Below, one piece after another: positions 1,019-47,940 of a DNA stretch of 47,940 nucleotides. Positions within the stretch are counted from its first letter, which is position 1. Each line of letters starts with the position of its first letter. The position numbers and the translations under genes were made by a program. The stretch spans positions 1-47,940 of the forward strand of contig JARQWU010000050.1 in assembly GCA_040182905.1 (NCBI GenBank). Reading direction: 5' to 3'. This DNA comes from Barthelona sp. PAP020 (taxonomy: Eukaryota). The notes under the pieces were generated by a model. The model was not told where the DNA came from. It saw only the letters and a program-made list of their open reading frames with translations, and searched no databases.

Positions 1019-2509
1019 ATGATTGTTAACACTGCAGTTGAGGAAACTGACCCTTATTTTAAGTATAATATGGATCGAGTAGTTGTTCCAGATGGGTTCG
1101 ATGTGGATGGATTTGAAGATAATGGTCGACCAAAGAAGATTTATAATGCAGCGCTTGAAGGTAATCTTGATGTTGTCAAGCAGTGTATCAAAACTGGCGT
1201 TGATGTGAACAAACAGGGCAAGAAAGGAAGGACATCGCTTTGGGGAGCTGCTTTAAATGGGCATATTGAAGTTGTTGAGTTTTTGTTGGATTTTGGTGCT
1301 GATGTTAATTTGTGTATGAATGTGGGATATTCTCCATTATATGTTAGTTGTCAAAATGGTCATCTTGATGTTGCTAAAATTCTCTTGGATCATGGCGCTG
1401 ATGTTAATTTGTTTCCTAATGATGGTAGTTCTCCATTGTACGTCAGTTGTCAAAATGGTCATCTTGATGTTGCCAGAATGCTTTTGGATCATGACGCTCC
1501 TGTTAATTTGTGTAGGGACGGTGGATATTCTCCATTGTACATTAGTTGTCAAAATGGTTATCTTGATGTTGCCAAAATGCTCTTGGATTATGGAGCAGAT
1601 ATTAATTTGTGTATGAATGAAGGTGCTTCTCCATTGTACATCAGTTGTGAATTTGGTCATTTTGATGTTGCCAAAATGCTCTTGGATCATGGAGCTGATG
1701 TTAATTTGTGTGATAATAAAAGTTTTTCGCCATTGTACATCAGTTGTCAAAATGGTCATCTTAATGTTGCCAAAATACTCTTGGATCATGGAACTGATAT
1801 TAATTTGTGTAAGGATGGTGCTTCTCCATTGTACATAAGTTGTCAACTTGGTCATCTTGATGTTGCCAAAATGCTCTTAGATCATGGAGCTGATGGTAAT
1901 TTGTGTGATAATGATGGTATTTCTCCATTGTACATCAGTTGTCAAAATGGTCATCTTGATGTTGCCAAAATGCTCTTGGATTATGGGGCTGATGTTAATT
2001 TGTGTAGGCACGGTGGATATTCTCCATTGTATGTCAGTTGTTGGACAGGCCATCTTGATGTTGCCAAGATGCTTCTAGATTGTCCCGAAATAAACCTATA
2101 TCGTAAAGATATGCTGTTATTTTTCAACAGATTGTATACAAGTGATGAACAATGGAAAAAGAACAAATACAGTATTTTGAGCTGTCCCAATTTAAAACAT
2201 CAATTGGAGAGTGTCGAGCCTATTGATTTGAAATTTGAGCAATTTTCCAAATCCGAGTTAATTGAATTGGTGAAGAATGAGGGCTATCTTTTATCAACAC
2301 TTGTTGCAATGAAGGTAAACGGTGGCATCATCCGAGAATTTGTCAGTGCTGGAGTTTACATGAATCAAAGAGATTTTGACATGTCAATCAACTTATGTTG
2401 GGATTTGATTGACATCAATGAAAGGAATGGTGGTAATATGCGTCAGTATATTGATGAAGAGATGAAAGATGATGAGAGTGATGAGAGTGATGACAACGAT
2501 GATGATTAG
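1019..2509 (+). CDS. Ankyrin-repeat protein (about 10 repeats) with an unassigned conserved C-terminal module and acidic tail
   Basis: Repeated GxSPLYISCQNGHLDVAKMLLDHGADVNL ankyrin consensus. First ATG at 1019 (the ORF track starts at TTG 1010), stop TAG at 2507-2509. The C-terminal 61 aa align without gaps to the WD40 protein at 35691-36896. Confidence 0.92.
   Translation: MIVNTAVEETDPYFKYNMDRVVVPDGFDVDGFEDNGRPKKIYNAALEGNLDVVKQCIKTGVDVNKQGKKGRTSLWGAALNGHIEVVEFLLDFGADVNLCMNVGYSPLYVSCQNGHLDVAKILLDHGADVNLFPNDGSSPLYVSCQNGHLDVARMLLDHDAPVNLCRDGGYSPLYISCQNGYLDVAKMLLDYGADINLCMNEGASPLYISCEFGHFDVAKMLLDHGADVNLCDNKSFSPLYISCQNGHLNVAKILLDHGTDINLCKDGASPLYISCQLGHLDVAKMLLDHGADGNLCDNDGISPLYISCQNGHLDVAKMLLDYGADVNLCRHGGYSPLYVSCWTGHLDVAKMLLDCPEINLYRKDMLLFFNRLYTSDEQWKKNKYSILSCPNLKHQLESVEPIDLKFEQFSKSELIELVKNEGYLLSTLVAMKVNGGIIREFVSAGVYMNQRDFDMSINLCWDLIDINERNGGNMRQYIDEEMKDDESDESDDNDDD
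1325..2081 (+). repeat. Intragenic 99-bp tandem repeat array (8 near-identical ankyrin units)
   Basis: Nucleotide unit TCTCCATTGTACATCAGTTGTCAAAATGGTCATCTTGATGTTGCCAAAATGCTCTTGGATCATGGAGCTGATGTTAATTTGTGT repeats every 99 nt; one unit is 96 nt. Confidence 0.95.
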
Positions 2510-2879: not shown

Positions 2880-4060
2880 GAAAATTGCACCAAATTTTCC
2901 TACTTGATCGTCGAAGTTACATTCCTTTAATTGTCCGCTTTGGTTTTTGCTAAAATTTATTTAAGTGAGTTTTTTGGATCTATTTTTTTGTAATTATTTC
3001 CAAGCCAAGAAGAACTGTATGTATGAATGAACAAAAATGAATAGTGCTCATTTGTTTAATGGCTTTCAAGGCCCGATTGATCTGTTGAAAAACTTTAGAT
3101 TTTCTAAGGTAAAGTTCAAACTTTAAAATTTTGCTTTTGCAAAAATACAAAAAGATAGGAATGAAGAATTTCTCCGAAATTCTCCTACTTGATCGTTCAA
3201 ATTACATGTCAGTCCCTCAATTCCCCTCCTGGGATTTTGACTGAAATTTGCTAGAATGAGTTTTCTGAGTTTACTTTCTTTGTAAATAAATATAGTTGTT
3301 TCACAACTGGACCAATTTTCTTTTGTTTCTCTCTCTCTTGTAAATAGATATAGTTATTTCACAATTGGACCAAAAAATTTTTCATGAAAAGAAGGAGGAA
3401 GAGCTGAAAATTTTGATCCGATAAAAATAGTCCCCTTCTGAACAACTCTCATTTTATTTATTTTTATTTTTTATTTTTTTAAATTTTTATTTCTCTCTCA
3501 AGAAACCCATCAAGAATGAGTGAATTAGAAAAAATCATGTTTATTTGGTCAAAAACTTTCAAGGTTCAATGGATATGATAACAACTTGGAATTTCTTTAA
3601 AGTAAAAGAAACTTAAAAAGACAAAAAGGAGGAATCAATTTTCAAATATCATACTTAATCCACATTGAATTTCAGTCCCTCTATTTTCCTCCTTCGGGTT
3701 TCGGTTAAAATTTGCAATTAGTTTTTTGGGTTCTTCTCATTTGAATAATTGCAGTTATCTAGTCAGTGCACCAAAATTTCTACATTCCCATTTGATCATC
3801 AAAAATGAAGTTTGGTCACTCTTTTCCTTTGTAAAATGAGTGTTCTCAGTTATTTGTTTTCATGTGTACAAATTTGTTTCAAGGTTAGACCGATTTTCAA
3901 TATGTTTTTATCATTTCTTGTTATCTCCAAATCAACAGGAACAAAAAAATATCAATTGCGAATGAATTTACCTTTATTTACTTCAATTGAGGGTTGCACA
4001 CACCAACAACTCTAGAGACTTTCATTGTTTAGGAATTGAAAGTGATTCTTCAAAACATTA
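2880..4060. repeat. Degenerate tandem array of the same repeat family (best core copy 2996-3146)
   Basis: Sub-blocks recur in the same order: AAATT(T/C)TCCTACTTGATCG at about 2892 and 3177 (weaker near 3640), then the GAATGAGTTTTCT block at about 2963, 3254 and 3338, then the core at 2996 and, degenerate, near 3490. Confidence 0.8.
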
Positions 4061-4479
4061 ATCTTGCTGACTCTCTTGCAAATCTCTTTTTAAGATCGAT
4101 AATGTGAATTTTTAAAATGAGGAGCTTTTAGGCCTAATTACAATTGATCTTGAACCTTTATTGTGATTGTTTTAGACTTCACTGCAAATTCAAATTCAAG
4201 ATTTGAATCAATCTGAAGCATTGTAAAAAACGCTATTTCTTTGCTATCACCTGTTCTGGAAAATCCAATTTGAAGTTGATTATCAAATACAGAACTTGTA
4301 TGAACTTGCAAAGCAGAAGTTCTGTTGTTTCACCTCAGCAACAGTAGTAAAAGCTCTGATATGCTAAATACACTATTATTTGAATGAAAGTTCTCTTTAT
4401 ACATTGATCTATTTTGACTTGAGAAGAATGAGAAACTTTCTATTTTAAGCTGGTTGATTAAAGTGTTGATACCAATCCT

Positions 4480-4590
4480 AGAAATTAAATTTGAGTTCCC
4501 AATTCCCACTGTAAGTTTGACTGAAATATTCTTGAATGAGTTTTCTGTTTCATTCTCAGTAAATACATATGGTCGTTTCACAACTGGACT
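4480..4590. repeat. Partial copy of the repeat family
   Basis: TTTGACTGAAAT...GAATGAGTTTTCTG...GTAAATACATATGGTCGTTTCACAACTGGAC matches about 3237-3312. Confidence 0.7.
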
Positions 4591-5044
4591 ATGTTTTTAT
4601 TTTATTAGCCATTAACATAATGCAAAGCCAATCAAATACTCCTCTTTAACATTGAAAAGAATTCTTTTTAAAGTCCTTGTATTTTTGATTTTTATTAATG
4701 ATATTAAATAACCAGTAATGCTTTGTGAAAGAAGTATTTGTTTATTTTTTTTGTCTTTTGAAAGTAAATAACAAATAATACTTTATTTGATCGTTATCCA
4801 TGAGCACTTACATGTCTTAGTATTATCAAAGTGATTTGAATCTTGAATCAGCATTAAAAGGTATTGCAAAGATATTTTTTTTACCAAATAAAAAAAAAAG
4901 AATATTTGTGGAGTTTTTATTATAAACAAACCATATTAAGTAAATGTTTTGAGTGATGGATGTAAAAAAGAAGCACTTTGAAAATTTTAAAATTTTGAAC
5001 AATAAATAGAATTGGATGTAATATTGTTTGTTTTTCAATATGCA

Positions 5045-23093: not shown

Positions 23094-23969
23094 TCAAATG
23101 AGAGACAACAAAAAGACCACAATTTCATCATATCCTTCACTTTTGGCGATATTTAAGGCTTTATCTGAGATTTCTATCTTTTGATGACTGTATTGAACTA
23201 ACAACTTTATAATTTCAAAGTTTCCGAAATAACAAGATATTTCAAGAGGTTTACGTTCTCCTAAATTGACATTTACACCATATGTTAACAAAGCCTTCAC
23301 AATTGGCGCATTTTCATTTTCACAGGCAAGATATAACAGACTATTTCCATTAGAATCCATAATATCAAATGATTCAATGAAATTTTGAAAAACTTTCAGC
23401 ATTTCCATGTTGTTTTGCCGAACAACTTCACATAAAATGTGATCACCATTCATTAACGGAATGTTTGGATCTGCCCCTAAATTTAACAAAGCTAAGGCTG
23501 TTTTATTGAAGTTTTTAATGACAGAACCATGCAAAGGAGTTAATCCATCACTGAAATCCTTAATAGAACGTTTCGCATTAATATTAGCGCCATTCATGAT
23601 CAAATATTTAACTACCTCTGTATGACCTTTTTTACTGGCAATAAATAATGAAGTAGACTCATTATTATCCAAAATATCAATTTCGTCATTATTATATAAG
23701 GGTAATAACAATTTTAGGATCTCTATATGTCCTCTACAACAACAAGAATGAAGGGGCAACCTACCCCATCTTCCAGCTCTGACGTAAATATTCGGATTAA
23801 ATTTTAAACATTCTTTGATCAATTCAATATCACCGTTTTTAGCACCTATGTGAAGCTTTGTGTATCCTTTTTCGTCTATATCATTAACATTATCTTCAGA
23901 AATGTTCATTTTGAAATATTTGGGAATTTGGTTTCTTGAAAAACTTCTTTTCATTTTTATTTTTGTCAT
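23094..23969 (-). CDS. Ankyrin-repeat protein (about 7 divergent repeats); start codon uncertain
   Basis: GYTKLHIGAKNGDIELIK, GRLPLHSCCCRGHIEILKLLL, STSLFIASKKGHTEVVKYLIMNGANIN, GNSLLYLACENENAPIVKALLTYGVNVN. Lacks the C-terminal module of 1019-2509. Confidence 0.9.
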   Translation of the reverse strand: MTKIKMKRSFSRNQIPKYFKMNISEDNVNDIDEKGYTKLHIGAKNGDIELIKECLKFNPNIYVRAGRWGRLPLHSCCCRGHIEILKLLLPLYNNDEIDILDNNESTSLFIASKKGHTEVVKYLIMNGANINAKRSIKDFSDGLTPLHGSVIKNFNKTALALLNLGADPNIPLMNGDHILCEVVRQNNMEMLKVFQNFIESFDIMDSNGNSLLYLACENENAPIVKALLTYGVNVNLGERKPLEISCYFGNFEIIKLLVQYSHQKIEISDKALNIAKSEGYDEIVVFLLSLI

Positions 23970-24953: not shown

Positions 24954-27900
24954 TTAATAAATGTTTGATAGCTCAGAAATATAATTAACCAATGACTTTC
25001 TATTGTATCCCAATGCAACACTAATGATTTCTTGTAATGTACTGTCCAATAACAAGAAGCTTTCAATAACACCTCCATCGATACAATTAATTCGTTCTAT
25101 TTCCATGTTAGAGTCCAAATTTACATAACTTCTTGCTTGCTCAATATCTACTTCACCAGGAAGAGGTTTCAATTCAAGGATCTTCTTTTCCAATTTTTCT
25201 AACAATGAGTATAACTGGGGTGATAATGATTTATAACAAAAGAAAGCTCCGGACTGTCCTGTCATAATGAATTGAGGCATAAAGGAAAAATCCTTCGTGA
25301 TTTGGATATCTGTTTGAAATTCTTGAGACAATCCCCCCTTTAATAACACATTTATAGAATCACCAGTGTAAAAACATGTTAAAAAATGAAGGTATGAATC
25401 AGCTTTTTGTTCTTTTAAAAATGCTAGATTTCCACCACCACATACAAAACAGGAATCTTTGGACACAGCTAGAATTGCTGTTGAAAATTGAGGATTTCTT
25501 CCTTTTAAACTCGGTGTCAACTCTCCACTTTCCAAAAAATCTAGAGCAGTAACACCACCCAACAGATCACTAATAAACAAACGATTATCAATCAAAGAAT
25601 AATCTTGTGGTTGTCTCACAGTACTTGTGGTTTCAATGACACTTAACCGAGGATATTCAGGAGTTCCCTTTAAAATGAATTGATCCGCATGGCCTGATGT
25701 CAATACAATAATTCGGTTTTCATGTGTTAAAAGTTGTGCAGGTACTTCTTTCAAAGTCTTACTTAATAATAAATTGAAACTACTGTCACCAATCCAATAA
25801 ATATGTAAGCTACCCGAATTGTCATTAAGCAAACCACAACCAACAATTAAAATATCAAAGCCAAAAGCTTTTGATTTGGTTAAACACATAGGGACATGGT
25901 TCGAGGGTAAATTAACTTCAAATTGCTGAAGCAAAGTTGCTGAATCAATCAACCTTAATGTACCACCAATTATATGTCCTTTGTTAAAATGAACAAAACC
26001 AATTATGGTCTGAAAATCTCCATTGACTGTTTTATAAGTACAAATAGGATTTGGAGTTGCATCAAAATGATTTGCATGAAAATTAACCTTCTTACTTAAT
26101 CTAATACGGGTAATATTCAAATGGTTTTGTTCAATTGTTGAAAGATAATCATTAAATGGGGTAAAAAACCCATCATAACAACTCGGTAATGATAACTGAA
26201 ACATTGTTTTTCCACTGATATTGATAAGATACGAATCAATCCCTAGCACAATCACATAGTTCTTCTTATACATAAGAATCTCAAAAATATGTGATACATT
26301 TGTAAATTCACGACTAATTTTCATATTTTCATATAAAGTTATTGTGTTATCAGAATTATAAGTGATAAACATGGAATCATCTATGGTTTTCATCAATAAA
26401 CAGATACGATCCTTCCTACAATCTAAATCTTCCATTGCTTTAACCATCGTATCATCACCATACATCTCAATTTCATAAATATCATGAATAAAATCAGCGA
26501 AAATCAACCGATCATCAATAATCGTTAAAGATGAAATGGAAGAACCAAATTCAATTGTCTTATCAATTGTATCTCCTTGTCCATACAGAATTGTGCCTGC
26601 TACAGTATACATACACCACACATTCTTGTGGAATACACCACCGACAACGTACATTTCATCACAACTATCTTTAAAATTTTCAACACTACCAAGATCCACC
26701 ACATATCCTTCATCCAACATATACAACCCACGTGTGGTTATCATCAGCCCATCTTTATGAGCTGTATGAATTATTTCCTCAGGGAGTTCCAAATTATCAA
26801 TGTATGTAATTGTTGGTGTCGATGTGGATGGATTTTCCTGATTTTGAGACAATTTAACCAGTTGATTCCCTTCAATACCAGAAAATATCACACCAATAAA
26901 ATCATTAACAGCAACTCCAGTGTTCTTTAACGTTGTTTGCATCGTATCTTCTGCACCTGTTTCCATATTTTTGACAAGTTTTTTCTTCTCAATACTTTTT
27001 AGATCAACAAGATGACTTTTCATTGCTTTATTCTTTAGTTCAATTTCATCCACCAAATCTACCGTTGGTCCAGTTCTAATTGATCGTAAACTTCCATTGA
27101 AAGTGTTACAAGCAGCTAAAATACTTCCATTAGGCAGTCTTTGCAAACCAGTAACAGGGCCAAAATTTTCAAATGTCATTAACTCTTCAACTTTGCTGCC
27201 AATTTTTAATAACTTAGAATCGTTAAACTTGGAAGCTAAAAACAACAAGGAAGGAGTAAGCATCGTCAAATCACTTCCCACAATACCTTCATAACATACA
27301 TCATATGTTATTCTGGTAGAACTGACGTTGAGATGCAACACCTCACCAGTTTGATTGACTCCAAAAAATGTTGCCTCATCTCGTATTGTACGACTAGGTA
27401 CTCTTTGAACAAGGCTATGAATAAATGAAGGAGCTGGTGAACTTAAAATACAATGTCCTGAAGAGATAACAAACGAATGAGTGTCTGAACAACAAAGCAC
27501 AGTTTCCTCATCTTTTCCTATCAACGTCATGGATAAATTTCGATTTATTATATTATCAAGTCTAATAATTGTTGGTTCCCAAAGACCGTATTTCAGAAAG
27601 GTGACAGTTTTGTTACTAAACATGTACAAACAAGATGAAGTGGCTAGCATTGCCATTACTTGACTATGACGAGGAATTCTTCGGGCAACTTCCAGCAATT
27701 TATGTTGATTTGTCAATGTGATATAAAATATAACATGTTGATATACATAAATGAACAAATGCTTACCAGTAGGATCAAGTGTTATTAATGGTTTATCCAC
27801 TAAAGGATAACCAACATACCTATCATGTCCTGATTTTGCACGGGTTGTTATAGAATAATCATTTTCAAATTCCAAAATAAAATAATTGTGTCTTTCAGTC

Positions 27901-28181
27901 ATCACAAATAATAGATCTTTTTTGGGTGTTGCAATTACCTCAGCAATTAAAAATCCTCCAATAATTGGAATTGAAGCAACCGGAATCAAAGTCTCATTGG
28001 TTGAAGAAGAAATTGTTTGTGTTTGTGATTGCTGTTGTTGTAACCGATAAATATCAATATGAGTGTGGCGACATAATAATAAATTCGTAATTTGTTTGTT
28101 ACATAAGTTTGCGGTGAAAGAATTAATAATAGCTGTTGATTTTACAACAGTAGATACATAACCATATCGAATTTGAGACAT
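24954..28181 (-). CDS. DDB1: DNA damage-binding protein 1 (CUL4 adaptor), divergent
   Basis: YGYVSTVVKSTAI...NLLLCRHTHIDIY, KDLLFVMTERHNYFILEF, LLFLASKFNDSKLL, FENFGPV, GSLRSIRTG, FYTGDSIN, CIDGGVIESFL. First ATG at 28181. Confidence 0.88.
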   Translation of the reverse strand: MSQIRYGYVSTVVKSTAIINSFTANLCNKQITNLLLCRHTHIDIYRLQQQQSQTQTISSSTNETLIPVASIPIIGGFLIAEVIATPKKDLLFVMTERHNYFILEFENDYSITTRAKSGHDRYVGYPLVDKPLITLDPTGKHLFIYVYQHVIFYITLTNQHKLLEVARRIPRHSQVMAMLATSSCLYMFSNKTVTFLKYGLWEPTIIRLDNIINRNLSMTLIGKDEETVLCCSDTHSFVISSGHCILSSPAPSFIHSLVQRVPSRTIRDEATFFGVNQTGEVLHLNVSSTRITYDVCYEGIVGSDLTMLTPSLLFLASKFNDSKLLKIGSKVEELMTFENFGPVTGLQRLPNGSILAACNTFNGSLRSIRTGPTVDLVDEIELKNKAMKSHLVDLKSIEKKKLVKNMETGAEDTMQTTLKNTGVAVNDFIGVIFSGIEGNQLVKLSQNQENPSTSTPTITYIDNLELPEEIIHTAHKDGLMITTRGLYMLDEGYVVDLGSVENFKDSCDEMYVVGGVFHKNVWCMYTVAGTILYGQGDTIDKTIEFGSSISSLTIIDDRLIFADFIHDIYEIEMYGDDTMVKAMEDLDCRKDRICLLMKTIDDSMFITYNSDNTITLYENMKISREFTNVSHIFEILMYKKNYVIVLGIDSYLINISGKTMFQLSLPSCYDGFFTPFNDYLSTIEQNHLNITRIRLSKKVNFHANHFDATPNPICTYKTVNGDFQTIIGFVHFNKGHIIGGTLRLIDSATLLQQFEVNLPSNHVPMCLTKSKAFGFDILIVGCGLLNDNSGSLHIYWIGDSSFNLLLSKTLKEVPAQLLTHENRIIVLTSGHADQFILKGTPEYPRLSVIETTSTVRQPQDYSLIDNRLFISDLLGGVTALDFLESGELTPSLKGRNPQFSTAILAVSKDSCFVCGGGNLAFLKEQKADSYLHFLTCFYTGDSINVLLKGGLSQEFQTDIQITKDFSFMPQFIMTGQSGAFFCYKSLSPQLYSLLEKLEKKILELKPLPGEVDIEQARSYVNLDSNMEIERINCIDGGVIESFLLLDSTLQEIISVALGYNRKSLVNYISELSNIY

Positions 28182-35156: not shown

Positions 35157-35690
35157 GGAACAAAAAAAAATCTGAAAGATGTGTTTTTATCTGAGTGCTT
35201 GAGGTTCGGACCAAATGAAAATCCAGTTTTCTATCATTATTTGAACAATTTGACACATGAGGGACATGTTAGGAGAAGCAAAATTGGCTATTCATGAAAA
35301 CTAACTTGAATGGTGAAACAATGAGAACTGGGCAGGATTTTTTTTCAAATAATTTATGAAGAAACTAAAATGAACTAAAAAAATAACCTATAGATGAAAA
35401 AATAAAAACACATTACCTTTTATATGACACATAAAACATTCAAATTCTTAAAAGTGCATCTGTGATTTGGCAAAAGAAAAAAACCAACAAGCATATTTTG
35501 TTGCTTTGTGTGAACTTACAAAGTTTTTAAAAGGCATAGAATGAGCAAATTAAACTTGAAGTTGAGCAAAATGTTTAAAGTGAAATTGCCACACAAAATA
35601 TATCAGCAATGTGAATATTATAACACACAAGGTACTGTCAATAAACTTAAATAAGGTCAAATAATTGGAAATAAAACCAAATACCTTTGA

Positions 35691-36896
35691 TTAGTCATCA
35701 TCATCGCTTATATCATCACAATGTTCATTCATAAACTCATGCATGTTACCACCATTATTTTTGTTGAAGTCAACCAAATCCCAACAAGTATCAAGAATCA
35801 TATTGTATTCCTCTTCATTCACATAAATTCCTGCAGCAACCAATTCTCTAATCTTTTGAGTACTCATATTCATAGCAATAAGATTCGAAACTACATTACC
35901 ATCACCTTTTGATAATTCAATGAGTGCCAATTTTTGTGAATGATAATAATCAGATTCGATTGAATATATCTTGATAGTTCTATCTTCACACGATCCACAT
36001 GTCAACTGTTTACCATCAGGTGATATAGCAAAAGAAAAAAATCTGCGTTCACAACCACAATGAAGCATTTGAATCTCCTGATAGCTGTCTATATTGTATG
36101 CAGTAATATATCCATCACCAGCCATTATAAACAAGATGTTGGGTGTTAAAAAATGAAGAGCCCATACTTCACCACCAAGATTAAATGAGTGAAGAAGAGA
36201 TCCATTATCAAAGTTCCAGAGTTTGACTTTATTTGATTGATCACTCGCACAAATAATCCTTTTGGTTAGATTAAAGTCAATAGCATTAACCTCTGCATGA
36301 TGTTTAAATGTGCGAATGACGGAAAAATTGTCAGGGTCAACTAATTTGGCGCTTTTATCTTCACTGCCAGTAAAAAGATATTTCCCATCTGATGAAAGTT
36401 TTATAGCCCAAATACACCTAGAATGAATTCTCTCTTTCAATACAACAGCACAGCTATCTATATCCCACTTTTTAAGAGCGCCATAACCATCACCAGAAAA
36501 AATATAATTAGAACAACAGGAAAAACAAATTCCAAACAGATTGGCATCAGTGCTCATTCTCCCCAAAATAGATAAATCTGGAAAACTGTAGACAATAATA
36601 GTCTTGTCAAGGGAACATGTTGCCATTCTTTGTCCATTGGGTGAAAATACAACACCAAAAATACTGTATTCATGATCTTTCAAACTTCGATATAATCTTC
36701 CAGTTTCCACATTGATTACATGTGTATTTCCATTATCACTACCAATTACTAGCCACTTACCATCTGCAGAGTATTCACAATCATGCATGGGACCCAAAAC
36801 ATTTCCAATTATTTTCATACTACTTTTGTTAATTTTGTGATAGAGCATTCCATTAATATTTTTTTCCATCAAATCAACATTTGATTCGGCAGACAT
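35691..36896 (-). CDS. WD40-repeat beta-propeller protein with the same C-terminal module as the ankyrin protein 1019-2509
   Basis: About 7 WD-like repeats (YSADGKWLVIGS, HEYSIFGVVFSPNGQRMATCSLDKTI, LKKWD, LSSDGKYLFTGSEDK, VKLWN, ISPDGKQLTCGS). Probable ATG at 36896; an upstream in-frame ATG at 36959 is also possible. Confidence 0.92.
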   Translation of the reverse strand: MSAESNVDLMEKNINGMLYHKINKSSMKIIGNVLGPMHDCEYSADGKWLVIGSDNGNTHVINVETGRLYRSLKDHEYSIFGVVFSPNGQRMATCSLDKTIIVYSFPDLSILGRMSTDANLFGICFSCCSNYIFSGDGYGALKKWDIDSCAVVLKERIHSRCIWAIKLSSDGKYLFTGSEDKSAKLVDPDNFSVIRTFKHHAEVNAIDFNLTKRIICASDQSNKVKLWNFDNGSLLHSFNLGGEVWALHFLTPNILFIMAGDGYITAYNIDSYQEIQMLHCGCERRFFSFAISPDGKQLTCGSCEDRTIKIYSIESDYYHSQKLALIELSKGDGNVVSNLIAMNMSTQKIRELVAAGIYVNEEEYNMILDTCWDLVDFNKNNGGNMHEFMNEHCDDISDDDD

Positions 36897-37719
36897 GACG
36901 ATTAAAACAAAAGATGAAAAAAAAAAAGTACTGCCAGTTTTTTCTTCCGTCTTCGCCATTTTGGAAATGCAAATTCGATAAAGCACTTCAATAAAGGATT
37001 CTTTGAGATTTTTCGATAATGTAATAACGTTAAACTAGAATTTATTGAGTTCACGATTCAATTATCCACATATTCATTACTATTCATTAAAATATAAAAA
37101 AAAAATTTGTGTTTCTAATAAAATAATATGTTTTATATCGTTTATAATTTGCAAAACTCCATCGACATCAAGCAAAAAATTCAAATATTATAATCTGGAG
37201 GTTTGTGCTCTGTTTTAGAGATTGTATAGTGGCAAATTAATGTTGTTATTTCCAAAGACAATGTCTTCACGTCAAATACTACTGATACTTAATGATTAAA
37301 GAAAGTAATTTGCTGAAATTTTGTTCGCTGTTACTTCAATAAATGTTATTTGTGGCAATTAAATACCCGAGGAATAGACATTTTGACAAGCAATGTAATT
37401 TGCAAGTAAATAAAAATCAATATTTATTTTTAATTCATCATCTTAAGAATTAGTTTGAGAAAGGTTTGAAAGACATTTGGAACAAAGAGAAGACAATTTT
37501 TGAAAAATGGAATAAAGGGTAAAATATACATGAACTGGAAGGAACTCAGCAAGATTCTCTCAACCCAATCATCAACTGAAGCTCAAATAATTCTACATAT
37601 TAGGTAAAAGGTGGTTTCGTATTGTCAGTGAAGCTATTTTGGGTGCAAATCTTTTCTTTCAATGTGAAAATCCAAAAAAAAAAAATTGTTTGAAAAATAT
37701 TCATTTACTTACAGTACAA

Positions 37720-46348: not shown

Positions 46349-47152
46349 ATGTCAAGCAATTTGGATCTTAAACAGAAGTTTAGTCTTTTAAGACAAGAGT
46401 ATGTCAAATTAAAGGGAGAATATGACGAATTATTTGAAACATATGAACAACTTCAAAAAGAAAATCAAGAATTACACAAATCTTTTGATTGTTTTAAAAT
46501 AAATTCCTCAAGTGATGAACAGAAAAAGGATATTATCAATAAAAAATTGGAAATGAAACAAGAAGAAATCAACAGATTGGTTGAAGAATTGAATGGAATT
46601 CGTATCGTTTATGAAAGTAAAACCAAAGAAAAAGTTGATTCATTGAGAGAATTTTATGATAATACAATAAAAGAACGACAAAAAAAAAGTGAAAATGATT
46701 TTGAAACACAAAAAAATAATTTAAGCGAAAAAATTCTTAATTTGGAAGAAAAGTTGTTTTTGTTACAGAATGCAGAAAAAGAAGCAGCAAAACGGACTGT
46801 TAATATTCCTTCCATTGATTTAGCAGAAGGTTTTTTGATTAAGGAAGGGTCAGTAAGAAAATCTTTGAAGAGACGTTTCTTCAGATTAGCAATTGATCGG
46901 GAAGAAAAGAGAGTCATTTTTAATTATTTTGCTGAGCCTGAAAATTCATCTCCAATTGGTTCTATTGATTTAGCTACCAGCACATTTGTTTATCAAGTTC
47001 CTGATGAAAAGCATCAACGTAAATATACTTTTGAAATTGATGTCGATACTGCTGATCCTGATTCTCGTATTTACGTATTATCTGCTGCATCATATGCAGA
47101 TTTGCAATATTGGCTTGTTATGTTGGACTTTGCTCTTGAAACTATTTCATGA
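46349..47152 (+). CDS. Coiled-coil protein with C-terminal PH domain (paralog B)
   Basis: Aligns without gaps to 11295-12101; 188/267 aa identical by manual count. Confidence 0.9.
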   Translation: MSSNLDLKQKFSLLRQEYVKLKGEYDELFETYEQLQKENQELHKSFDCFKINSSSDEQKKDIINKKLEMKQEEINRLVEELNGIRIVYESKTKEKVDSLREFYDNTIKERQKKSENDFETQKNNLSEKILNLEEKLFLLQNAEKEAAKRTVNIPSIDLAEGFLIKEGSVRKSLKRRFFRLAIDREEKRVIFNYFAEPENSSPIGSIDLATSTFVYQVPDEKHQRKYTFEIDVDTADPDSRIYVLSAASYADLQYWLVMLDFALETIS

Positions 47153-47424: not shown

Positions 47425-47787
47425 CCGATATTTTTAAAAATTTATCCTAATTTTGCAAGTTTTCATGCATTCACCGTGGCAGGTCAAAAATTTGGGGGTA
47501 AATTAAGGAAAAGTTTTGTACTTTGAGGAAAGAGGAAGAATCGGAAAATTTCGATTCGACACAAATTATGGGCTTGTGAACAACCCTTAACAGATTTCAA
47601 GCACAAGACTATCAAAACTTACATGAATCTGTTACAATTAAGATATTTTCTTGAATTCATTTTTCAATTGAAAATTGCTTTGTTTCTTTAAAACCTGAAC
47701 GAAATTAATCTTTTAAAATGGTAAAGACAATTCAAATGAAAAAATGTGAAATCAATTGTTAAGCTGAACACACATACAATACAAATA

Positions 47788-47940
47788 ATTTCCAAGCCAA
47801 GAAGCACTGTGCGAATGAGTGAATAAAAAAGAATAGTGTCTATTTGGTTAAAGGCTTTCGAGGCCCGATTGATCTGTTGAAAAACTTTAGATTTTCTAAG
47901 GTAAAGTTTAAACTTTAAAATTTTGCTTTTGCAAAAATAT
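47788..47940. repeat. Dispersed repeat family core, running off the window end
   Basis: Near-identical to 111-260 and 2996-3146, same orientation. Confidence 0.9.

Follow-up and report, generated by a model that had tools for sequence, protein, structure and literature searches.

How does one short protein segment come to stand at the end of proteins as unlike as a seven-bladed propeller and an array of ankyrin repeats, and what might it do there? The question is raised by contig JARQWU010000050.1 of Barthelona sp. PAP020 (assembly GCA_040182905.1), which was analysed over its positions 1 to 47,940 (47,940 nucleotides (nt), hereafter the window). Two genes of this window, one for a WD40 protein of 401 amino acids (aa) and one for an ankyrin-repeat protein of 496 aa (Table 1), end in the same C-terminal module of about 70 aa. 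This had been noticed in an earlier, sequence-only reading and is borne out by BLASTP (37% identity over 94 aa, E 1e-20); a third module copy was not found within the window. The analysis leads to the conclusion that the module is a real, undescribed and lineage-restricted C-terminal domain, which sits on an expanded and diversifying family of receptor-like proteins.

Size, distribution and partners of the module family

Searches with the module returned 4, then 25 proteins, and finally 46 matches among 1.84 billion representatives. After the four weakest profile matches (P0060-62 and P0064) had been set aside as ordinary ankyrin proteins, 62 carriers with 56 distinct modules remained beyond the window, or 64 carriers with 58 distinct modules if the two window genes are included, so the expanded family postulated from the window alone does exist. 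Trees and counts exclude isoform duplicates, P0060-62, P0064 and, in some analyses, the fragments P0027, P0033 and P0059. A source was obtained for 27 carriers, of which 24 had been queried and 3 are cluster members, and all of them come from the EukProt transcriptome of Barthelona sp. PAP020; 13 further ones bear Trinity-style EukProt names; source checks thus cover 27 carriers, and 13 by name style, of the 62. A diverse profile built from 26 sequences returned 14 known carriers and one weak ankyrin match. None of the pattern matches in metagenome contigs (0/24), viral contigs (0/49) or prokaryote genomes (0/7) was confirmed as a relative, and neither these searches nor that of the representatives turned up a single-copy ortholog in a distant taxon. 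The module is thus known so far from barthelonid data only; the collections searched may simply lack other BaSk proteomes. There is no Pfam family for it, no sequence match in the PDB and no clear fold match. A published description of the family was not found in literature searches, and the main text of PMC11316075, as far as that source was available, contains 0 occurrences of WD40, ankyrin or ubiquitin.

In every carrier the module is C-terminal: in each of the 57 aligned sequences the chain ends 6–29 aa after a GGN-type motif, and in most carriers an acidic tail follows. The proteins it terminates differ widely, which supports the view that the module has changed partners. A core WD40 subfamily comprises 38 sequences linked at E 1e-30, the window gene among them; other WD40 carriers are divergent WD40 proteins and three proteins of about 1000 aa, likely double propellers as judged by eye and with weak Pfam support. 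The ankyrin carriers are P0016, P0029, P0045 and the window ankyrin gene; P0045 adds a kinase-like motif, recognized by eye and without a Pfam kinase match. P0036 is an armadillo carrier resembling importin-alpha (E 5.5e-8), and in P0063 the module ends a propeller-less protein with a hydrophobic stretch. Among the divergent carriers, ten (P0048, P0049, P0052, P0053, P0056-58, P0063, P0065 and P0066) carry an additional helical unit, N-terminal to the propeller, which resembles a degenerate ankyrin repeat. In this deep-branching lineage of anaerobes, whose genomes are very small, the module marks out a large gene family.

Conservation of the module and variability of the propeller

Identity across 20 full-length paralogs is 57.5% in the module, compared with 39–45% in segments of the propeller, and among 35 paralogs the module holds 12 of the 30 most conserved positions within its 17% of the length. 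Its invariant residues in these 35 (R350, G356, W372, L374, N378, G383 and N384) include polar or exposed-type ones, that is, R, W, N and the G-N pair. The propeller shows the opposite tendency on one side: in the 35 paralogs, mean entropy reaches 3.10 bits at the hot spots of its top face, whereas bottom loops have 1.87 (p 3e-8) and outer strands 2.18 (p 1e-5), although the columns are not independent. The hot-spot positions were set according to WD40 conventions. A constant module combined with a variable top face is what one would see, at the level of sequence, in a library of receptors that share one constant plug.

Structure and boundaries of the module in the window proteins

The open reading frame (ORF) of the WD40 gene could be extended to an in-frame upstream ATG at 36959, which would give a 422-aa version; homologs, however, align from the Met at 36896. 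In predicted structures the WD40 repeats fold as a seven-bladed propeller, whose last strand (TIKIYSIE) ends at aa 314, while the shared segment begins with LIEL at aa 325. The resulting gap of 10 aa, as against 54 aa between the last repeat and LIEL in the ankyrin protein, agrees well with the distances of about 10 and about 60 aa given in the sequence-only reading. Its description of the 10 aa as a linker is not supported, as they are predicted to form a strand and a helix, and the five-helix module is predicted to be continuous with the last propeller strand. The same applies to the proposed autonomy of the module, because a confident fold is predicted only in the full protein (predicted local distance difference test, pLDDT, 84–94 for the module in this context versus 43–75 for the module alone). 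The N-terminal helix may pack on the module; a complex prediction for the N-terminal 32 aa with the module, made without alignments and with the fold of the partner uncertain (score 0.00), speaks neither for nor against this.

Whether the similarity starts abruptly at LIEL depends on the level of comparison. Between the two window proteins it does, with 0, 2, 1 and 1 identities per 10 aa before LIEL and 6, 4, 4, 4, 5 and 6 from LIEL on; at the family level, when two ankyrin lineages are compared, a weak pattern is already visible from about 12 aa before LIEL, where the last propeller strand ends, with a hydrophobic residue at position -12, an aromatic one at -8 and S-E/Q at -2/-1. In the window ankyrin gene the tandem array looks recent, and the number of repeats exceeds that of its relatives P0016 and P0029. 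A second ankyrin gene of the window (291 aa, 23094-23969, minus strand) lacks the module. A reading of the stretch D-x-N-x-x-N-G-G as an EF-hand was dropped, as its spacing, compared by eye, does not fit the EF-hand consensus.

Possible function of the module

The module probably serves to dock varied recognition proteins on one shared partner: each WD40, ankyrin or armadillo carrier would be held by its tail, and the variable top face of the propeller would select the target. In that case the identity of one partner would serve for the whole family. As this partner we tentatively propose an adaptor of a cullin-RING ubiquitin ligase, of the Skp1, Elongin-C or DDB1 type, a proposal by analogy in which our overall confidence stays a little short of even. 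The ligase-receptor reading is favoured because WD40, ankyrin and armadillo are classic substrate-receptor folds; receptor families joining WD40 or ankyrin repeats to a box are established (WSB and ASB; PMC4403949, in part), and so are F-box proteins with WD40, ankyrin or armadillo repeats (PMC9485057, in part).

A series of results weighs against this proposal. The BC box has the consensus [TSP]-L-x3-[CSA]-x3-hydrophobic (PMC6232478, in part) and the cullin box contains LPxP (PMC4403949, in part); of 55 modules, one has a strict BC box (mean after shuffling 2.7), four have a wider published pattern, and one has a combined LPxP/proline-box pattern (mean after shuffling 1.25). The F-box motif hydrophobic-P-x2-hydrophobic-x3-hydrophobic occurs in 2 of 55, and in two sets of 6 and 26 module sequences none matched the Pfam families SOCS_box, F-box or PRANC at E values up to 10; the unrelated control P0064 did match SOCS_box (9e-8). 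In favour of the proposal, 50 of 57 modules keep a BC-box-like core, hydrophobic-x3-[CSA], at the same place in the alignment; this may simply reflect helix packing, V replaces [CSA] in the three ankyrin carriers, and the strongest conservation is that of the last 40 residues of the module, not of the BC-box-like helix. As for ligase components, the window holds only a DDB1-like gene, and a constant tail with a variable face suits any shared hub equally well.

Identity as a DCAF, a receptor of the DDB1-Cul4 ligase, was rejected: the WDxR-type pattern [WYF][DEN]x[RK] is absent from the window WD40 protein, just as the sequence-only reading had stated for WDxR, and the module also occurs on non-WD proteins. 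The pattern [WY]Dx[RK] is present in 19 of 66 collected proteins, at scattered positions.

A bolder form of the ligase proposal, which we regard as conceivable but on the whole doubtful, is that barthelonid metamonads invented a ubiquitin-ligase docking box of their own, independent of both the F-box and the SOCS box and thus a third solution of this kind, and with it a library of at least 56 receptors. The box would possibly have originated from a degenerate ankyrin repeat, and the WD40 top faces would diversify in the manner of immune receptors. Such a library would amount to roughly 1% of the gene set in a very small eukaryotic genome, for which 6,305 proteins are predicted in this strain (PMC11316075, in part; Table 1 of that paper).

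The failure of every ligase-box motif test, together with the fact that the family evidence shows merely a constant tail and a variable face, leads to a first alternative, namely that the same receptor library is docked on another hub such as a phosphatase, Cdc48/p97, a chaperone, the proteasome or a membrane coat. We consider this rather unlikely, as a C-terminal box recurring across WD40, ankyrin and armadillo proteins is a pattern best documented for cullin-ligase receptors, at least in the parts of the literature covered; further, no motif for another hub was seen, a systematic search for one not having been made.

It is also imaginable that the carriers are immune-like sensors of prey or parasite molecules, in which case the module would be a self-associating signalling domain and not a plug. 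The hypervariable binding face, the variation in the number of ankyrin repeats and the lineage-specific expansion would fit such a role, as would the kinase-like motif of P0045 (seen by eye alone, as mentioned); still, we hold this to be quite unlikely.

A purely structural role deserves a longer discussion because it touches on the origin of the module. Here the module would mainly be a degenerate ankyrin repeat with capping helices, and the propeller would have been inserted into a helical domain that begins N-terminally. Consensus ankyrin repeats give a gapless alignment with the module's first half, three of five PDB matches are designed ankyrin repeat proteins (DARPins; E 1.1–1.4), the four weakest profile matches are plain ankyrin proteins, and P0063 lies near ankyrin clusters by language-model features (Atlas 0.88, to be taken as a lead only). 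The N-terminal helical unit of the ten divergent carriers had its top leave-one-out match at or next to the anchor in nine of them, with strong scores in four, and the confident fold in the full protein only would also suit a cap. On the other hand, the profile-profile (HH) probability to ankyrin is 2.4%, the wider 26-sequence profile lost the DARPin matches, and invariant R, W, N and G-N residues, kept across unrelated partners at a level above that of the propeller core, would not be expected of a mere cap. As a full account the structural role seems improbable; it may, however, describe where the module came from, and it is compatible with docking on a shared partner, the explanation preferred here.

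Origin and spread

As the partner folds are unrelated, at least a few fusions are required. Within the core WD40 subfamily, on the other hand, the repeated shuffling envisaged in the sequence-only reading was not supported: distances between modules correlate with those between propellers (Mantel r 0.55, p 0.002, 20 paralogs; 0.47–0.74 for controls internal to the propeller; r 0.51 in 35 sequences), and this joint divergence of module and propeller fits one old WD40 fusion followed by duplications. Module trees, proposed in that reading as a test of shuffling, are mostly unresolved. Two ankyrin modules form a clade (100/98), and in one tree the ankyrin modules are indeed nested among WD modules (99/96), but no alternative was rejected in approximately unbiased (AU) tests (p 0.44, 0.25, 0.58 and 0.56), neither monophyly of the WD core (p 0.44) nor one common origin for the non-WD carriers (p 0.25). 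A scenario with several datable partner swaps, in which the ankyrin and kinase-like carriers are nested in WD modules, was dropped because the nesting failed these tests. The only candidate for a recent swap is the pair P0018/P0020, whose modules are near-identical from LIEL on and whose propellers are just 48% identical; both are isoforms of one Trinity gene, and the pair may represent a recent tail swap or an assembly chimera.

The module would thus have been joined to a few unrelated repeat domains by a small number of old fusions, through ordinary DNA recombination, and the fusion of WD40 and module would then have multiplied through whole-gene duplication. A mobile cassette, repeatedly recombined at the DNA or cDNA level and leaving genes as recent insertions among conserved ones, might be read from the several unrelated partner folds, the nesting in one tree, the P0018/P0020 pair and the above-median spacers of the WD40 gene, but is highly improbable given the AU tests, the possible chimera, the co-divergence of module and propeller, and the flanks and rare introns described below.

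Genomic context

The window is AT-rich and gene-dense, with long uninterrupted ORFs, and includes genes for PRMT5, DOCK and a DDB1-like protein. Both module genes are uninterrupted, so the claim that no intron marks the junction was correct. Of the 20 window ORFs taken as genes, a splice-motif scan flagged just one for a sense-strand intron candidate, and as introns are rare throughout, a missing intron at the junction is the local norm and uninformative. The lone candidate (10987-11025, minus strand, 39 nt, in-frame) lies in a GST-like gene and has its branch-point motif fused close to the 3′ splice site.

The spacers of the WD40 gene (534 and 823 nt, ranking fifth and third among 19 window spacers) are wider than the median of 249 nt, as the sequence-only reading had it; as a sign of insertion they carry little weight, because a spacer of 573 nt, which separates the SNARE gene from that for a 553-aa coiled-coil protein, adjoins no module gene. 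The flanks of the WD40 gene have no 12-mer in common with those of the ankyrin gene (10-11-mers in common are only low-complexity or unpositioned), and their comparison revealed neither a target-site duplication nor a poly-A tail, so mobility at the cDNA or DNA level is not supported at this locus.

Table 1. Features of the two module-bearing genes and their surroundings (window positions)
Feature	Positions	Strand	Remarks
401-aa WD40 protein gene	35691..36896	-	N-terminal helix, seven-bladed WD40 propeller, C-terminal module, acidic tail
N-terminal helix, aa 6-17	36846..36881	-	predicted; pattern kept across paralogs
Seven-bladed WD40 beta-propeller, about aa 21-314	35955..36836	-	top face hypervariable
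Connector of 10 aa, aa 315-324	35925..35954	-	predicted strand end and start of module helix 1
Shared C-terminal module, aa 325-391	35724..35924	-	five predicted helices
Acidic tail, aa 392-401	35694..35723	-	low confidence in predicted structure
Downstream spacer, 534 nt	35157..35690	.	no repeat common to ankyrin flanks, no poly-A tail, no target-site duplication
Upstream spacer, 823 nt	36897..37719	.	no repeat common to ankyrin flanks
496-aa ankyrin-repeat protein gene	1019..2509	+	same C-terminal module
Eight 99-bp tandem ankyrin units	1286..2073	+	81% matches
Segment of 54 aa, last ankyrin repeat to module	2096..2257	+	partly conserved in P0016/P0029
Module copy of the ankyrin protein, aa 414-480	2258..2458	+	

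Several other elements were observed in the window. Dispersed non-coding repeats (104-259, 2989-3144 and 47781-47936, with smaller pieces in 1-600 and 2880-4610) are 85–92% identical over 156 nt, surround the ankyrin gene and recur at the window end; they are possibly decayed mobile elements. A spacer of 3650 nt (14481-18130) holds genes for tRNA-Arg(ACG) (15820-15895, minus strand) and tRNA-Gly(GCC) (16439-16509, plus strand), both enclosed by nested inverted repeats (15406-15462/17013-17069, 96%; 14975-15039/17341-17407, 85%). A gene encoding a coiled coil and a PH domain is duplicated (11295-12101 and 46349-47152; 73% identical DNA over 300 nt). The DDB1-like gene (24954-28181, minus strand; 1075 aa) has matches to the RSE1/DDB1/CPSF1 propeller and to CPSF_A; by its sequence features it is presumably DDB1, and it is a possible ligase adaptor in Barthelona.

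Comparison with known systems

Among known modules the SOCS box is a close parallel. Three N-proximal helices predicted for the module would be of SOCS-box-like size, and the hydrophobic-x3-[CSA] core is a further likeness. The WSB (WD40) and ASB (ankyrin) receptors of Elongin BC-Cul5 also carry one short C-terminal helical box on both folds (PMC4403949, in part). Unlike the SOCS box, the barthelonid module has no full BC-box consensus, LPxP cullin box or Pfam SOCS_box match, and about 30 extra residues, followed by the acidic tail, carry its strongest conservation (W-D-L, N and G-G-N); unlike WSB and ASB, it is seen in barthelonid data only.

DCAF receptors of DDB1-Cul4 are comparable in their seven-bladed WD40 propeller with a short N-terminal helix (PMC4403949, in part), and a DDB1-like gene is present in the window; they differ in that the window protein lacks WDxR and that the shared element is C-terminal and also found on non-WD40 proteins. 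The divergent F-box repertoires of the Dictyostelium type likewise consist of lineage-specific WD40, ankyrin or armadillo receptors with a box that can be hard to detect (PMC9485057, in part); there the box is N-terminal, in contrast to the C-terminal barthelonid module without F-box match. The ankyrin/PRANC proteins of poxviruses, with a C-terminal F-box-like element, and the ANK/BC proteins are, similarly, expanded families in which repeat proteins end in a docking module that stays constant (PMC6232478, in part), whereas the barthelonid family is cellular and mostly WD40, with the F-box motif nearly absent and no relatives on viral contigs. The design of a receptor with a constant box is therefore already known, and it is the sequence of the module that is new; if the module is a ligase plug, the combination of variable receptor and constant box would have arisen once again from new sequence.
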